From Dehalococcoidia bacterium (lineage in GTDB: Bacteria > Chloroflexota > Dehalococcoidia > Plut-88900): DNA of 64,000 nucleotides. The notes below the pieces were generated by a model. The model was given only the letters and a program-made list of their open reading frames with translations, made no database searches and was not told the origin of the DNA. The stretch's first letter is position 1; each line of letters begins with the position of its first letter. The position numbers and the translations under genes are program-made. Positions 35,045 to 40,984 of the stretch are shown one piece after another. Location: assembly GCA_965197585.1 (NCBI GenBank), contig OZ240215.1:1120001-1184000 (forward strand), read 5' to 3'.

Positions 35045-36100
35045 TGTGGATGTCAGGTAATTCGTTGACAGAATTAGGTGGATTTAAGGGTCTCCAAAGG
35101 GGTCTTTCCGTCCATTGCCTGGTGGGGTCTCTGAGTATTGTAGTAGATCAGGTATTGCTGAAGCTCGTCCTTCAGTTCCGAGACCGATTCGAAGGTTGTC
35201 CCCTCCAGCAGGTCCTCGTTCAAGGTTCTCCAGAACCGCTCTATCTTCCCGTTGGTCTGGGGCCTATAAGGGCGGGTGTAGCGGTGCTTTATGCCCAGCT
35301 CATTGAGCATCCGTTCCATGGGGTGGCCCTCGGTGTTCCTTGGGGAGGCCATCTCGGGGCCGTTGTCGGTGAGGATGGCCTCGAATTGGATGCCGTACTC
35401 CACGTTAAGGAAATTGATGGACTTCAGAGTAGCAAACATAACGGAGAGACTCTTGATGTCTCCGACCACTTCGGCCCAGGCCAGACGGGTGTAGGCGTCG
35501 ATGAGGCCCACCAGGTAGTAGCGGTGCTTGGTGCCCACGATGGTATCCCGGCTGAGGTGGTGGCTGTCCAGGTGGCCCAGCTCTCCTGCCCGGGTCTTGA
35601 TGATCTTGCGCTTCGACTGCTGCATCGGCTTTGTGAGCCTATTGAAACCGTGGCGTCTGGTGATGGCGTAGATGGTGGAGGGCTTAGGGGTGTTGTGTTT
35701 AAGGATGGGTTTGAGTATGGCATAGATCTCGTAACGGTTGGTACCGTTAAGGCGCTCGTTGATGACCTTCTGCTCAATGTAGGGCAGGGTGCGGCGGGAC
35801 TTCCACCCGGGACCCCGCTTACGGGGGAGGAAGGCGTTGTCGGAGGGGGAGAGGAGGAACCGGTTGTAGTACTTGGCGAAGGTCTGACGGCTAGTGCCGT
35901 GGAAGGAGTAGAAGTCCTGGGCGAAGCGGAAACGGGGATGCTTCCCTGCCTTGACCAGTTGATACTCATGGATGAGGAACCGCCACTTCTGAATGTAGTT
36001 CCGCTCAAGGGTGAGGTCCTTGCTATTGTCTCGCATTCTCGCCTCCAGATTGGTGTTGGCCTCTTATACCAATCTGTCAACGAATTACCTAACACTTACA
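35045..36100 (-). mobile_element. IS481-family insertion sequence
   Basis: Ends TGTggatgtcaggtaattcgttgacaga / tctgtcaacgaattacctaacacttACA (imperfect IR of about 30 bp); 5-bp direct repeat attcc at 35040-35044 and 36101-36105. Confidence 0.88.
35074..36036 (-). CDS. IS481-family DDE transposase (integrase core)
   Basis: GELGHLD, IDAYTR, ILTDNG.E, TRPYRPQTNGKIERF, YYNTQRPH...GKTP. Confidence 0.92.
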   Translation of the reverse strand: MRDNSKDLTLERNYIQKWRFLIHEYQLVKAGKHPRFRFAQDFYSFHGTSRQTFAKYYNRFLLSPSDNAFLPRKRGPGWKSRRTLPYIEQKVINERLNGTNRYEIYAILKPILKHNTPKPSTIYAITRRHGFNRLTKPMQQSKRKIIKTRAGELGHLDSHHLSRDTIVGTKHRYYLVGLIDAYTRLAWAEVVGDIKSLSVMFATLKSINFLNVEYGIQFEAILTDNGPEMASPRNTEGHPMERMLNELGIKHRYTRPYRPQTNGKIERFWRTLNEDLLEGTTFESVSELKDELQQYLIYYNTQRPHQAMDGKTPLETLKST

Positions 36101-36331: not shown

Positions 36332-37240
36332 TCACCCCTCAATCCCCGCGTAGTGCAAACTCTGCCCCACAATATCCACCCCCACAAGCTCACTGTGCGC
36401 CGCCAGCAGTTGCCTAGTCACCGGCCCCGGTATCTCACTCCCAATCGGCCTCTTGTCGACCCGGGACACGGGCACGATTCTTGGGCTGGTACGGCTAAAG
36501 AACACCTCGTCGGCGGTGTACAGATCGTAGGGCTGAAGGTCTTCTTCAAGTGCCGGGATCCCGAGACTCTCGGCCAACTCGAACACCACCTGCCTCGATA
36601 CTCCCTGGAGAATGTTGTCGTCCTTGGGCGTCTTGAGAACACCGTCGTTGACGATGAACACGTTGTACCCCAGTCCCTCGGTGACATTGCCTTCCACGTC
36701 CAGCAGCAGGGGCAGTCCCTCCGGGTCGACGTCCCGTGCTTCCAGCTCAGCCAGCACGAAATTCATCCTGCTGTGGTGCTTCACCTTGGCGTCGAGCATC
36801 GAGCTGGAGTAGCTGCGCACCTTGGTGATGATGGCGTGCGCCCCGTCCATGTAAAACCTTGCAAATTCCTCGAAGTGTATCGGCTTGATAATCACGCACA
36901 CGCTCGGGGGGCCATCGACTGAATCTCCACGGGTGATTATTGGGTTTATCGCAAAGTCCCCGACTTCGTTCCGCCGATGGTCGTTCCTCGCCACTCCCTC
37001 GCGGCACACCTCTAACATCTCCTCTTCTCCGAATCCCGGGTCAACCCGCACGTACTTCAACGACCGGTACAGCCTGTTCACATGGTCTTCCAGCCGGAAC
37101 GGCACCCCTCCGAATGTCCGCCCTTGGTCGAAGACCACATCCGCCACCGCAAACCCCCGGTCGTGCGGCGGAAATAGCACCTCGCTATAAGGCACCCACT
37201 CCCCATTGAAATATGCCGTGTAATCGTTGTAGTTTCCCAT
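36332..37240 (-). CDS. Aminotransferase class IV (BCAT/DAAT/ADC lyase family)
   Basis: YFNGEWV, DRGF..ADVVFD, H..RL.RS, catalytic K, EG.GYNVF, ILQGVSR. Confidence 0.9.
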   Translation of the reverse strand: MGNYNDYTAYFNGEWVPYSEVLFPPHDRGFAVADVVFDQGRTFGGVPFRLEDHVNRLYRSLKYVRVDPGFGEEEMLEVCREGVARNDHRRNEVGDFAINPIITRGDSVDGPPSVCVIIKPIHFEEFARFYMDGAHAIITKVRSYSSSMLDAKVKHHSRMNFVLAELEARDVDPEGLPLLLDVEGNVTEGLGYNVFIVNDGVLKTPKDDNILQGVSRQVVFELAESLGIPALEEDLQPYDLYTADEVFFSRTSPRIVPVSRVDKRPIGSEIPGPVTRQLLAAHSELVGVDIVGQSLHYAGIEG

Positions 37241-37310: not shown

Positions 37311-38477
37311 TTAACCAACAAATAACTTCACCGGAGCAACGGATTCGGTAGACCCACCCCCCACCAACTCAAACAACTCCACCCCCGGCTCCCGAGCCAT
37401 CCGCATCAGAAACGGCTCCGCATTCATCCACCCCTCCGGACTCCCGACTCCCCTCCGCCCAATCTCCCCCGACGCCACCATCAACGTGGCCAGCGCCGCC
37501 ACAGAGGTAGTTCCCCTCCTCGAATAGTCCTGGGCCTCGAACACCCGCCGGCAGGCCTTCCCGTCCTTCTCTCCCTCCACCCTGACCCGCACAGCCATCG
37601 GCTCATCCAGCGGCTCGATGTCGAAATACGGCTTCCCCTCCTCAGACGACAGGAACGTCATCAGAAATTCCATCGGGCTGGTCTCCAGGCCCGGAACATT
37701 CTCATATGACGTGAATCCCCACCGCACCATCGTCTCCATGAAGTCGTTCCCTTCAGCCTGGTGCAACCCGCCGCTTGCCGTGACCTCGGTCAGGCTGGGT
37801 ATCGACTGTGAGATGGTCACCGGGTCCGGAACGCCCGTGTAATACACCTCCTTCGCCCCGACTGGCGGCAGAAACTCGATCTCTTCCCTATTGGCGAACA
37901 CCCCAGGTTTTACATAATCACCATCGATAAACTGTGGCGCGAGGCCGCTGTTGATCCGAAGAAAGTGTTGTATTGCCGCCGGGTAGTTCAGCGAATAGTT
38001 CCACGAAAACCAGATATTCACTCGACGAGGGACGTCCATACTGTCACAGGCGTATCGAGCCAGCACTCCACTCAAACCCGGCATGATCCCGCATCCGGTC
38101 AGCACGGCGACTCCCTCGTCCTTTGCCTTCCGGTCCCAGTCCGGGTTGAAGAACAGCTCTTCCGCCGGTTCATGGTCGTCGCCCATGTCCACATAGTGCG
38201 TCCCTGTCTCTATCGCCGCCTCTACTACCTTCAACCCATGCAGATGATAAGGCCCGACCGCATTGAACACCGTGTCGACTTTGCTTAGCGCCTCTTTCAA
38301 CCGGACTTTGTCGTCCACGTCCAGTGCCATCCATTCCGCCCCCGTCCTCTCCGACACCCGCCGCGCCCGCTCCCCGTCCTTGTCCGCCGCTACCAGCTCT
38401 ACTCCCTTTCCCTCCTCCGCGATCTGATATGCAATCCCCCGGCCGTGGAACCCGCACCCCAGCACCATTACCTTCAT
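37311..38477 (-). CDS. Saccharopine dehydrogenase-like NAD(P)-dependent oxidoreductase
   Basis: VLGCGFHG, NAVGPY, A.E.GTHYVD, GCGIMPGLS. Confidence 0.88.
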   Translation of the reverse strand: MKVMVLGCGFHGRGIAYQIAEEGKGVELVAADKDGERARRVSERTGAEWMALDVDDKVRLKEALSKVDTVFNAVGPYHLHGLKVVEAAIETGTHYVDMGDDHEPAEELFFNPDWDRKAKDEGVAVLTGCGIMPGLSGVLARYACDSMDVPRRVNIWFSWNYSLNYPAAIQHFLRINSGLAPQFIDGDYVKPGVFANREEIEFLPPVGAKEVYYTGVPDPVTISQSIPSLTEVTASGGLHQAEGNDFMETMVRWGFTSYENVPGLETSPMEFLMTFLSSEEGKPYFDIEPLDEPMAVRVRVEGEKDGKACRRVFEAQDYSRRGTTSVAALATLMVASGEIGRRGVGSPEGWMNAEPFLMRMAREPGVELFELVGGGSTESVAPVKLFVG

Positions 38478-39466
38478 AGTCTCCCCAACAAAGGGGCCAC
38501 CTCTTCGACGTACCGACCCAGCTGCTCAGTCATGTCCGGCCCCACGAACCGCAACACGGGCGTTGTGCATCCGGCATCCACGTAGGACTGGATCTTTTCC
38601 GCCACTTCTTCAGGCGGGCCGTAAGCAACCCAAAGATCGATAAGTCCCGGGGTGACGAATGCGGGCCCGTAGTAGGAGACCAGGAATTGGTGGGCCTGCT
38701 CATAGGCGACGTCCCTGTCATTGTGTATGTTCACCATCAGGTGCAGGCACGAGTCCAAAGCCCCCGCGTCCCGACCCATCCCCGCCGCATACTCCCGTAT
38801 CCTGTCGAATCTCTCCCGGAAATCCTGCGGTTCTATCGCGTCCGTCTGCCACCCGTCCGAATGCTTCGCCACCCGGCGCAGCACCCTTTCCATCAACTCC
38901 GGGCTATAGTCACCCTTGGGGTTTACGGCCAGCCACAGCGGGACCCGGGCCTGGACGGGCTTGGGCAGCGCATCGACTTCCTCGAACTGGAAGAAACGCC
39001 CCTTGTGGGTGACCTTCTCCTCCGACCAGAGCCTCCGCAATATCTCCATCCCCTCCAGCACCCGACCCACCCTCTCCCCCGACGCCACGCCCATCACCTC
39101 TAGCTCTTGAGCGTATTGCGGCCCGTACCGGGCCGACCCGCCGTTTCAGACAGCCAGTATCGTTCGACCCCCCGACAGTACGTCCAGGCTCGCCCACTGG
39201 ATCGCCAGTTGTACGGGGTTGCGAAGCGGGAAGCTGGCCAGGCATATGGTGCCCAGTTTTACATAACTGGTACGTGCAGCAATGGCTGATAGGAGAACAA
39301 GGTAGTCGAGCCTCGGTTTGGACAGCAAATTATCCCCGACCCACACGCCATCAAAGCACCCCGACTCCTCCGCCGCCACCGCCGCATCCACCAGCTCCGA
39401 CACACTAGTCCCCCCAGACACCACAGACCTGTTGGACAAGCTTATTCCGTACTTCGCTCCAGCCAC
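38474..39466 (-). CDS. LLM class oxidoreductase with in-frame TGA (putative selenocysteine; alternatively a nonsense pseudogene)
   Basis: ORF-track pieces 39146-39466 and 38474-39097 are one frame (993 nt) separated only by TGA at 39146-39148: LSGGRTILAV*NGGSARYG; both halves carry LLM motifs. Confidence 0.8.
39119..39135 (-). promoter_or_regulatory. SECIS-like hairpin 3' of the in-frame UGA
   Basis: Minus strand UGA-aacggcgggu-CGGCCCG-gua-CGGGCCG: perfect 7-bp stem starting 11 nt after UGA with GU in the loop. Confidence 0.6.
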
Positions 39467-39643
39467 TATATGGTGTTCCTTCCACTAGTCCCTCCCCTCT
39501 CCCTTGATGGGAGAGGGCTAGGGCCGTAGGCTCGCTGAGGAGAGTGAGGGTGTTCCTTTAATCTAAGGACTAGCTACACAGAATGGTATCATATACCCTG
39601 GCCAGCTTCTCTAGCTCTTCATCCACAACCGGAGTCCCTCCCC

Positions 39644-40984
39644 ATGCCTGCCAACACCAAGACCCTCGACACCATAATCGTAGGCGGCGGCATCGCCGGC
39701 CTCACCATCGCCTACCGACTCCAGGACCAGGACATCCTCCTCCTGGAAAAAGAAGACTACTGCGGCGGTCGCACGCTCTCCAAACAGATGGGCGAGTACG
39801 TCTACAACATGGGCGCCCAGGTCGTTAACGGCGACGACAGCCTCGTTGCTCCCCTCGCCGACGAGCTCGGTGTCACCCGCAGCCTAATCAACAAGACCAA
39901 GCTCCCGATAATCATGAAAGGCAAACTGGTCGCCGCCTCCAACGAGCCCTCCTTCCTCTGGCAGCTTCCCATCTCTCTATCCGACAAGATCAAGCTCGGG
40001 TGGCGGGTGCTCAACCTCAGGCGCAAGTACGGCGAAGTGCGCAAGGACTTCCCCGACATCAACGACCCCGACATCGTCCACCTCAACTCCATGACCCTCG
40101 CCCAGTACATGAACCTCGAAACCGGAGACCTCCGAGACATTTGGGACACCGTCGCCCTCGCCACCACTACTACCCATGCTGGCGAGTCTTCTGCCTACCA
40201 CCCCATCAGCACCTTCCTACACTTCATGGCGAAGGAGTATTTCGTCAACGGTGGGACCTGGCAAATCACCCGTGCCCTCTGGGACCGACTTTCCGACCAA
40301 ATAGAAACTTCTGCGGAGGTCTCCAGGGTCGAACAGGGCTCGGATGGCGTCACAGTCACCTATTCCCAGGGTGGTCGAACCCACACCGTGCGCGCCCGAA
40401 AATGCGTCATGGCTGTCCCCGCGCCTGTCGCACTCCCCATAATCGATCCTCTTCCCGACTGGAAGCGCGAGGCCCTGGCCGCCGCACGATACGGCTCCAT
40501 AACCAGCGCCGGCTTCCTCCTGGACCGCAACTCCGAGGACTTTCTCGGAAAGGGTGTCTGGCGGGTCCCGACCGTGCGCAGCCACCTCGTATCCGTTACA
40601 AACCCCACCATCACCTTCCCCCAGGAGGTAAAGGACAGGACGGGCCAGGGTCTCCTGCGCGTCTATACCGCCGACGCAGAGTCCAAGCGGCTCTCCATGC
40701 TCTCCGACGGCGAGGCCCTAGAGTCCCTCATGGAAGAGCTCTACGCCGTCCTCCCCGACACCCGTGGCCACGTCATAATCGGCGCACTGAAGCACTGGGA
40801 ACACGGCGGAAGCCCCTGGCTCGTTGGTCGGCTGACCCACGTCCCCAACATCCAGGCCCCCACCGACAACATCCACTACGCCGGAGACTACACCGCCGGC
40901 TCCGGCATGGACGCCGCCGTCCACTCCGCCTCCCGAGTCCTCACCGAACTAGGCCACGGCCCCCTCTTCCCCACCCCCGCCTAA
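39644..40984 (+). CDS. FAD-dependent amine oxidase/protoporphyrinogen oxidase family oxidoreductase
   Basis: IVGGGIAGL, LLEK...GGR, MGAQ, C-terminal YAGDY..GMDAAV.S. Confidence 0.85.
   Translation: MPANTKTLDTIIVGGGIAGLTIAYRLQDQDILLLEKEDYCGGRTLSKQMGEYVYNMGAQVVNGDDSLVAPLADELGVTRSLINKTKLPIIMKGKLVAASNEPSFLWQLPISLSDKIKLGWRVLNLRRKYGEVRKDFPDINDPDIVHLNSMTLAQYMNLETGDLRDIWDTVALATTTTHAGESSAYHPISTFLHFMAKEYFVNGGTWQITRALWDRLSDQIETSAEVSRVEQGSDGVTVTYSQGGRTHTVRARKCVMAVPAPVALPIIDPLPDWKREALAAARYGSITSAGFLLDRNSEDFLGKGVWRVPTVRSHLVSVTNPTITFPQEVKDRTGQGLLRVYTADAESKRLSMLSDGEALESLMEELYAVLPDTRGHVIIGALKHWEHGGSPWLVGRLTHVPNIQAPTDNIHYAGDYTAGSGMDAAVHSASRVLTELGHGPLFPTPA

Follow-up and report, generated by a model that had tools for sequence, protein, structure and literature searches.

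A luciferase-like oxidoreductase gene of a Dehalococcoidia bacterium whose in-frame UGA is very probably read as selenocysteine

Introduction

What should be made of a gene whose only apparent blemish is a single in-frame TGA, with two-thirds of its coding sequence still to come? The case considered here is a gene for an oxidoreductase of the luciferase-like monooxygenase (LLM) class, on the minus strand of a 64,000-nucleotide (nt) stretch of DNA (the window: positions 1,120,001 to 1,184,000 of contig OZ240215.1, assembly GCA_965197585.1) from a Dehalococcoidia bacterium whose genome is a single contig of 3.43 Mb. A first-pass annotation, made from the letters of the window alone, proposed a selenoprotein and named the observations that would bear on the proposal: the residue that close homologues have at the TGA, the recurrence of the TGA in related genomes and its support in sequencing data, and the presence of selA, selB, selC and selD.

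Following these leads, each of which came out on the side of Sec, we conclude with considerable confidence that the gene encodes a full-length luciferase-like protein, dependent on flavin mononucleotide (FMN) or F420, in which the UGA would be decoded as selenocysteine (Sec). The decoding mechanism is of the ordinary bacterial type; the novelty is the family.

One frame and one domain across the TGA

Re-reading the minus strand from 39466 to 38474 gave the same 331-codon frame that had first been described, with one internal stop, the TGA at codon 107 (39146-39148; ...SGGRTILAV*NGGSARYGP...), and no frameshift. A single Pfam domain, PF00296 (Bac_luciferase), covers both sides of the TGA at 163.8 bits, against a cut-off of 27.9, the match running from position 9 to 313 of the 314-position profile over residues 12-301. 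At its 3' end the gene shares the four bases ATGA (38477-38474) with the next gene, whose ATG overlaps the terminal TGA, again as the first-pass annotation had it.

Cysteine at the TGA column

The residue that homologues carry at the site is the most direct guide to what the codon replaces, and the first-pass annotation had set Cys here against Gly, Trp or Arg. A search of 5.8 billion protein clusters returned thousands of full-length relatives, and the 26 that were aligned, out of 120 listed, all have Cys in the motif LAVCNGGSA at 60-65% identity. For a second search only the 106 N-terminal residues served as query, and 120 short proteins among the matches listed were classified. Twenty of these, at identities from 99% down to 69%, have as their last residue the one just before the column, which is where gene-calling software would be expected to truncate a TGA gene; 55 run past it, 54 with Cys and one with Phe; and the other 45, which ended elsewhere or lacked the motif used, are uninformative. 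All 11 genomic homologues without the TGA have TGC or TGT. Just past the TGA, the family-invariant residues G109, G115, P116 and E121 are retained in every Sec form.

It had also been cautioned that the two other LLM paralogues have Gly here. This is true of the two paralogues in the window, and Gly occupies the column in most of the 54 other LLM genes of the genome; but all of these are at most 33% identical to the gene, so the caveat loses its relevance, and the orthologues and close homologues all have Cys. Gly at the column was accordingly rejected as a reading, having been seen only in distant paralogues.

Conservation of the TGA and selection on the downstream sequence

The TGA stands at the same codon in all nine species-level genomes of the genus, the eight orthologues being 80-98% identical at the amino acid level, and pairwise synonymous divergence (dS) between the two clades of the genus reaches 0.8-1.4. 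The ratio of nonsynonymous to synonymous divergence (dN/dS) is 0.06-0.16 downstream of the TGA (dS 0.3-1.1) and 0.02-0.13 upstream. Low downstream values that match those upstream argue that the 3' two-thirds of the gene is translated in frame.

Metagenome contigs were scanned for a degenerate pattern in which only residues upstream, the TGA itself and a single Gly were specified, the downstream sequence being otherwise free. Two contigs match, both with TGA at the same codon: L066, which is genus-like, and L065, a contig of 45% GC whose gene is 65% identical to that of the window and is followed by the same downstream gene (57% identity). Together with the 20 truncated database open reading frames (ORFs) described above, these extend the recurrence of the TGA that the first-pass annotation had asked for in relatives. 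Genomes sampled more widely (61 relatives, 401 from the phylum, 401 from the class) held the TGA form only within the genus, the others having Cys; the 301 genomes sampled from the class of L056 gave two Cys forms.

A quick maximum likelihood tree of 51 rows, from which genome G005 was omitted and for which 30 of the 120 Cys forms were drawn randomly, places the nine Sec forms in one clade (Shimodaira-Hasegawa-like approximate likelihood ratio test, 99), sister to 32 Cys forms, and the outgroups all have Cys. A single Sec clade within Cys-bearing relatives suggests a single Cys-to-Sec change in the history of the family, with the polarity deduced from the topology.

The TGA also withstands comparison with independent sequencing data. 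Contigs from three sequencing runs of three studies cover the site and agree on it; one spans 39098-39273 with no difference, and 39119-39148 is free of differences among the contig differences listed.

Two other genes deserve mention in their own right. The G005 orthologue (L033/L047, G005:C1:2140233-2141215) retains the TGA and the hairpin described below, and its frame change may be real or an indel artefact of long reads. A 45%-identical LLM gene from a different family of the class (L034, G058:C17:226-1194) has Cys at column 107 and a TGA at the invariant Trp42 column (…DSV*VGD…); TGG to TGA is one change, so this gene may be a pseudogene or an error.

A hairpin of the bacterial SECIS type

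Selenocysteine insertion in bacteria calls for a selenocysteine insertion sequence (SECIS), and the first-pass annotation had pointed to a perfect stem, CGGCCCG-GUA-CGGGCCG, ten nt past the UGA. That stem is real: CGGCCCG (39135-39129) and CGGGCCG (39125-39119) pair without mismatch around GUA (39128-39126), the hairpin is present in the minimum-free-energy (MFE) fold, and alone it reaches -12.7 kcal/mol. An additional bulged U with a further G-C pair, which had been offered as part of the likeness, turned out to occur only in the four to five closest genomes and to be absent from the 80%-identity clade.

The 17-nt hairpin is nucleotide-identical in all nine genus genomes and in L066, and its flanks vary synonymously. 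The codons over it, A-R-Y-G-P, are all invariant and form the longest, and the only five-codon, run of that kind in the gene; among amino-acid-invariant degenerate columns the background rate of codon invariance is 0.26 (59 of 226), which puts the probability of five at a place named beforehand at about 0.001. Contig L065 retains the five central pairs, GGCCC/GGGCC, despite a gene richer in AT (G+C at third codon positions, 0.43), and the joint probability of the three synonymous sites needed for this core is about 0.008 by the contig's own codon use. Its hairpin has the loop UGGAU and 5 bp, lies 16 nt from the UGA and folds at -9.7 kcal/mol.

The bacterial SECIS (bSECIS) model, as given in PMC13188914, has an apical loop of 3-9 nt, an upper stem of 4-16 bp, a G within the first two nucleotides of the loop, a distance of 16-37 nt separating UGA and loop, and an MFE of at most -7.5 kcal/mol. 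The window and L065 hairpins both lie within these bounds. The proposed likeness to bacterial SECIS elements therefore extends to loop, stem, G, spacing and energy, and the element is conserved beyond coding need. None of the 11 Cys-form genes carries the hairpin at the corresponding place.

The energy of the region as a whole is a poor guide. The 71-nt fold is unremarkable (z = -1.8), with 6% of Cys-codon controls folding equally well; whole-region energy does not discriminate, and we therefore rely on the specific hairpin. The hairpin itself exceeds chance: a perfect one of at least 7 bp with a G-first 3-nt loop, beginning 4-20 nt downstream, follows only 25 of 4089 Cys codons and 3 of 321 TGA stops of long ORFs in the genome. 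Rfam gave no covariance-model match on 39119-39148 at E values up to 1.

Selenocysteine machinery and other selenoproteins of the genome

The genome has the full apparatus whose absence had been named as grounds for refutation. All four components score above curated cut-offs: selA at 543 bits, selB at 370 bits, selD at 385 bits (with an in-frame TGA of its own) and tRNA-Sec (selC) at 65.8 bits, its anticodon given by ARAGORN as tca. TGA terminates 321 of the 1094 long ORFs of the genome, and on that count an altered genetic code was rejected.

Further UGA candidates came from a codon-score scan that yielded 463 hits, mostly false, of which 20 were picked by eye for a Pfam scan. The genome holds at least 14 selenoprotein genes of known families: three UGSC, two GrdB, one GrdB-like, GrdA, four AhpC/TSA, a thioredoxin-like/NHL protein, a rhodanese and SelD. 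Four of the 20 picks were discarded as pairs of adjacent genes (M24 peptidase/EF-P, RadC and two CoA-transferase III pairs). The richness of the set agrees with PMC13326102, which names Dehalococcoidia metagenome-assembled genomes among the selenoprotein-richest bacteria.

In nine of these 14 genes a perfect stem of at least 5 bp, closed by a G-first 3-nt loop, begins 4-20 nt past the UGA. The same type of hairpin follows 180 of 4089 Cys codons and 12 of 321 TGA stops, a comparison that is descriptive, since the motif was defined after the data had been seen. The hairpin of the LLM gene matches the commonest type found after the other Sec codons of the genome. Short G-first triloop hairpins of this kind may amount to a lineage-specific rule for recognition by SelB, through which more selenoproteins absent from the inventories could come to light, the M20 peptidase and CoA-transferase candidates below among them.

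Three further genes with an in-frame TGA lie outside the window. A gene of the M20-family peptidases/amidohydrolases (L076, G000:C1:1539389-1540612) has an in-frame TGA within its metal-binding motif (MHA-U-GHDGH), is spanned by one Pfam Peptidase_M20 domain, and keeps the TGA in all five genus genomes searched, at 78-94% identity; it is a candidate for a further selenoprotein family, missing from Table 1 of PMC13188914. A CoA-transferase gene (Pfam CoA_trans; L072, G000:C1:922616-923590) has an in-frame TGA (…KDNT-U-GVLYS…), also kept in five of five genus genomes and followed at a distance of 16 nt by a hairpin of 7 bp whose loop is GGC; it is a candidate for another unlisted selenoprotein. 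In a short-chain dehydrogenase/reductase (SDR) gene (L069, G000:C1:219523-220248), the TGA (…KAGG-U-SIVNMSS…) is followed by no hairpin, and five genus genomes hold no TGA orthologue, only paralogues of 64-67% identity. This TGA most probably arose by nonsense mutation or through error, and it serves as a useful negative contrast.

The barrel face and a proposed cysteine partner

Where in the protein would the selenium lie? An AlphaFold2 model built from the homologue alignment (predicted local distance difference test 84.5, predicted template modelling score 0.86) is a (beta/alpha)8 barrel, and Foldseek matches it to FGD, Mer, Adf, homodimeric luciferase and MsuD with template modelling (TM) scores of 0.70-0.77 and E values to 1e-19. 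In the model, residue 107 closes strand 102-107 and lies at the barrel's C-terminal face; the first-pass annotation had the right strand, the one that follows the Gly-Arg motif, but put the Sec in the loop after it. LLM enzymes bind FMN or F420 at this C-terminal face.

Cys75, invariant in the alignment of 26 homologues, ends strand 3 of the model, which adjoins strand 4. Covariation of the two columns was examined in 95 representatives of full length, drawn from the 150 top hits of a search over 1.84 billion cluster representatives. Columns 75 and 107 are Cys/Cys in 44, Cys/Gly in 3, Ala or Val/Cys in 3 and Ala/Ala in 2; the remaining 43 are otherwise non-Cys at both, and these counts ignore kinship (related sequences share labels), which makes them something other than a test of independent events. 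In these sequences Cys75 and Cys107 appear to come and go together. Most LLMs, among them all 54 paralogues of this genome, do not have the pair.

Strand 3, which Cys75 terminates, neighbours strand 4; this position and the covariation of Cys75 with column 107 lead us to infer a selenenylsulfide couple; the model suggests that Cys75 and Sec107 may form such a pair beside the cofactor. The Cys75/Cys107 pair marks a whole LLM subfamily, with Sec or without, that probably uses thiol or selenol chemistry by the cofactor.

Taken stepwise, the proposed mechanism would run as follows. The 17-nt hairpin 10 nt past the UGA would recruit SelB with Sec-tRNA(Sec), UGA-107 would be decoded as selenocysteine, and the ribosome would run on to the terminal TGA at the start of the saccharopine-dehydrogenase-like gene. 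Sec107 would stand in for the invariant Cys of the closest homologues where strand 4 ends C-terminally, on the cofactor face, and could act with Cys75 as a selenol/thiol (selenenylsulfide) redox pair beside the cofactor.

Competing readings of the TGA

Might the TGA be a true stop after all, dividing the locus into a 106-residue N-terminal piece and a C-terminal piece restarted at an ATG 18 codons on, the two perhaps making one barrel? Such a split gene would fit the in-frame ATG at codon 125, which is preceded by a purine-rich stretch and kept in all Sec forms, and the public gene calls, which show the locus as fragments; purifying selection on the downstream half is equally expected of a separately translated piece. 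Yet the break would fall exactly on the codon that homologues have as Cys, where there is no reason for a split, and the 17 codons between the TGA and the ATG stay in frame, retain the family-invariant residues and show substitutions of a coding kind. A hairpin of the SECIS model sits at the right distance, Met occupies the ATG position in most Cys forms too, so that the ATG is nothing special to TGA forms, and the purine-rich stretch is separated from the ATG by only about 3 nt here and is absent in L065. We regard a split gene as very unlikely.

Decay or error, whether a nonsense mutation (TGC to TGA or GGA to TGA) or a fault of sequencing or assembly, seems to us the least credible reading, with a chance close to negligible. 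TGC to TGA is a single base change, the genome holds at least one such case (the SDR gene, with its hairpin-less TGA and no TGA orthologue in five genus genomes), and the G005 copy carries a frameshift; but the TGA persists in nine of nine species-level genomes and in a 65%-identical contig, at dS of about 1 and downstream dN/dS of about 0.1, independent assemblies and contigs of three studies concur, and 20 database fragments from several lineages end at the same column. It is also very unlikely, and if anything slightly more so than a split gene, that read-through of the UGA depends on a residue other than Sec (near-cognate Cys or Trp, for example), or that Sec insertion is so inefficient that the site throttles the downstream operon by selenium supply. 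Sequence alone cannot tell which residue is inserted, and with ATGA coupling the efficiency of read-through would set expression of the downstream gene. Against non-Sec read-through stand an intact set of Sec genes, 14 or more further selenoprotein genes whose hairpins are similar, the use of TGA as an ordinary stop elsewhere, so that there is no general suppression, and conservation of the hairpin at synonymous sites, as expected for SelB recruitment.

The selenoprotein reading, too, has evidence weighing against it. RNA support is weak, amounting to one 186-nt metatranscriptome contig; RNA run X18 covers only 9 of 30 bins and may include DNA, and it is no proof of transcription. The genus genomes are close kin and non-independent, and additional depth comes only from L065 and the database fragments. 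The G005 orthologue is frameshifted near codon 237. The stem shows no compensatory changes, L065 keeping five pairs and losing two outright, and fold energy alone does not set Sec forms apart from Cys forms: over 48 nt, L090, L091 and L121, all Cys forms, reach -24.2, -20.7 and -17.8 kcal/mol through other hairpins. In comparison with luciferases, the chain of that name that was the first Protein Data Bank (PDB) match of a 105-residue query, 8k74, has Gly at the column (a 44-residue query found no match in the PDB), and the reactive Cys106 of Vibrio harveyi LuxA presumably follows the Gly-Arg motif at the same spacing as Sec107 and may be its equivalent.

Some of the adverse evidence concerns the cofactor, FMN or F420. 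The product scores 131.4 bits with TIGR03619 (F420_Rv2161c), below the cut-off of 166.9, and all other NCBIfam LLM subfamilies likewise fall below theirs; the gene was therefore placed in no named subfamily. The best-scoring of these sub-threshold profiles are F420 subfamilies. The genome has F420 biosynthesis genes over cut-off (cofD at 333 bits, cofH at 528 bits), and by these genes it is predicted to make F420.

Gene neighbourhood and possible function

The features of the locus are collected in the table below. A class IV aminotransferase follows the saccharopine-dehydrogenase-like gene and is probably in the same operon as the Sec gene, and a flavin amine oxidase is transcribed divergently. 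The order of Sec gene, saccharopine-dehydrogenase-like gene, aminotransferase and SDR gene, with the divergent amine oxidase, recurs in seven of the seven genus loci tested. L065 preserves the Sec gene followed by the dehydrogenase-like gene, and the Cys forms lack that neighbour.

Table. Features of the locus, in window coordinates
Feature	Position	Strand	Remarks
LLM-class (Bac_luciferase fold) oxidoreductase gene, very probably Sec-containing	38474..39466	minus	330 residues plus stop; GTG start at 39466; terminal TGA 38474-38476
UGA codon 107, putatively read as selenocysteine	39146..39148	minus	ends barrel strand 4 (model strand 102-107)
SECIS-like hairpin	39119..39135	minus	7-bp stem, loop GUA; begins 10 nt past UGA; 17 nt from UGA to loop
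Cys75 codon (TGC), proposed redox partner of Sec107	39242..39244	minus	end of barrel strand 3
Saccharopine-dehydrogenase-like NAD(P)-binding protein, 388 aa	37311..38477	minus	Pfam Sacchrp_dh_NADP 8.6e-15; ATGA overlap with Sec gene
Class IV aminotransferase	36332..37240	minus	Pfam Aminotran_4 2.3e-40; next in same direction
Flavin amine oxidase	39644..40984	plus	Pfam Amino_oxidase 1.1e-39; divergently transcribed
Integrase-core (rve) ORF	35074-36036		between aminotransferase and SDR genes

The gap between the aminotransferase and SDR genes is tens of bases in four of the genus loci and 98-244 bases in the three closest; given these short gaps in relatives, the rve ORF looks like an insertion sequence insertion specific to this genome. 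Upstream of the Sec gene, a palindrome resembling repetitive extragenic palindromic (REP) elements (…CCCTCTCCC-TTGAT-GGGAGAGGG…) occupies intergenic positions 39493-39556. About 66-85 copies of this REP-like repeat occur in the genome, its summed metagenome depth reaches about 41,000 against about 30 in the flanks, and two chance-level Rfam matches fall on it.

A reasonable guess from the conserved neighbours is an amine or amino-acid pathway, and the enzyme would then work with the dehydrogenase-like, aminotransferase and amine oxidase neighbours on an amine- or amino-acid-derived substrate. A bolder and decidedly tentative extension is that chemistry through a Cys75-Cys/Sec107 disulfide or selenenylsulfide at the flavin or deazaflavin would make this subfamily a barrel-fold counterpart of the flavoprotein disulfide reductases, with the Sec clade joined to its saccharopine-dehydrogenase-like partner in an amine or amino-acid pathway of these selenoprotein-rich Dehalococcoidia. 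If true, the gene would be the founding Sec member of an uncharacterised branch of LLM triosephosphate isomerase (TIM) barrels that are neither monooxygenases nor simple hydride-transfer enzymes.

A probable new family in the selenoproteome

The first-pass annotation had known of no characterised selenoprotein family of luciferase-like monooxygenases, and the inventories compared here bear this out. Among the 119 prokaryotic selenoprotein families in Table 1 of a 2026 review (PMC13188914), the part of that source consulted, there is no entry for LLM, Bac_luciferase, luciferase or PF00296. The terms luciferase, LLM, monooxygenase and PF00296 likewise do not occur in the text of deep-Sep and its four supplements, or in that of BSepDB and one supplement, which is possibly incomplete. 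Open full-text literature, a scope outside which subscription papers and NCBI annotation rules fall, yielded no relevant paper on a luciferase-like or LLM-class selenoprotein.

Databases hold the gene as fragments of 106-122 residues, some of the truncated ones from megabase contigs; one fragment of 108 aa is named 'LLM class flavin-dependent oxidoreductase [Dehalococcoidia bacterium]'. Public annotation misses the Sec gene, and these Dehalococcoidia genomes are therefore under-annotated. A Sec member would add the luciferase-like FMN/F420 barrels, a large and much-studied superfamily, to the selenoproteome, and the co-varying Cys75/Cys107 pair is a testable lead for flavin and F420 enzymology.

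Comparison with known systems

The nearest relatives are the Cys orthologues (for example P0002-P0121 and L087, L088 and L121), which are 60-67% identical over the full length, of the same length, and share the same invariant residues including Cys75. They differ in having TGC or TGT at the column, no hairpin 10 nt downstream and no saccharopine-dehydrogenase-like neighbour. They are annotated as 'LLM class flavin-dependent oxidoreductase' or 'SsuD/methylene-H4MPT reductase-like', and by their source names none is characterised.

Among enzymes of known structure, Mer (8qpm, 1z69), FGD1 (3b4y) and Adf (1rhc) are the best matches in sequence and fold, with a phmmer E value of 2e-17 to Mer. Mer differs at the site itself, where the aligned residue is the middle Gly of LGIGPG and the LLM gene has its putative Sec. 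LuxA is of the same fold family, but nothing suggests light emission or an aldehyde substrate for the Sec enzyme, and no luciferase-alpha gene scores over cut-off in the source genome or in 401 sampled genomes of its class. Residues alpha-Cys106, alpha-Ala74 and alpha-Ala75 around the FMN pocket of luciferase affect the C4a-(hydro)peroxyflavin, according to PMC10696468.

The selenoproteins GrdB, rhodanese and SelD of the same genome differ from the putative LLM selenoprotein in protein fold and resemble its gene in their signals: each has a UGA aligned with Cys and, 10-19 nt on, a short GC-rich G-first triloop hairpin, such as CGUAGC-GGC-GCUACG at +12 in GrdB and ACGUGC-GGC-GCACGU at +11 in the rhodanese. 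For chemistry, the analogue is high-Mr thioredoxin reductase, a flavoprotein with a Cys-Sec centre, a Rossmann-type fold, flavin adenine dinucleotide and NADPH, and a C-terminal Gly-Cys-Sec-Gly. The likeness lies in a thiol/selenol pair that exchanges electrons with a flavin and is an analogy only, with no membership claimed; thioredoxin reductase is unrelated in fold, and in the LLM gene product the pair would sit instead on strands 3 and 4 of a TIM barrel.

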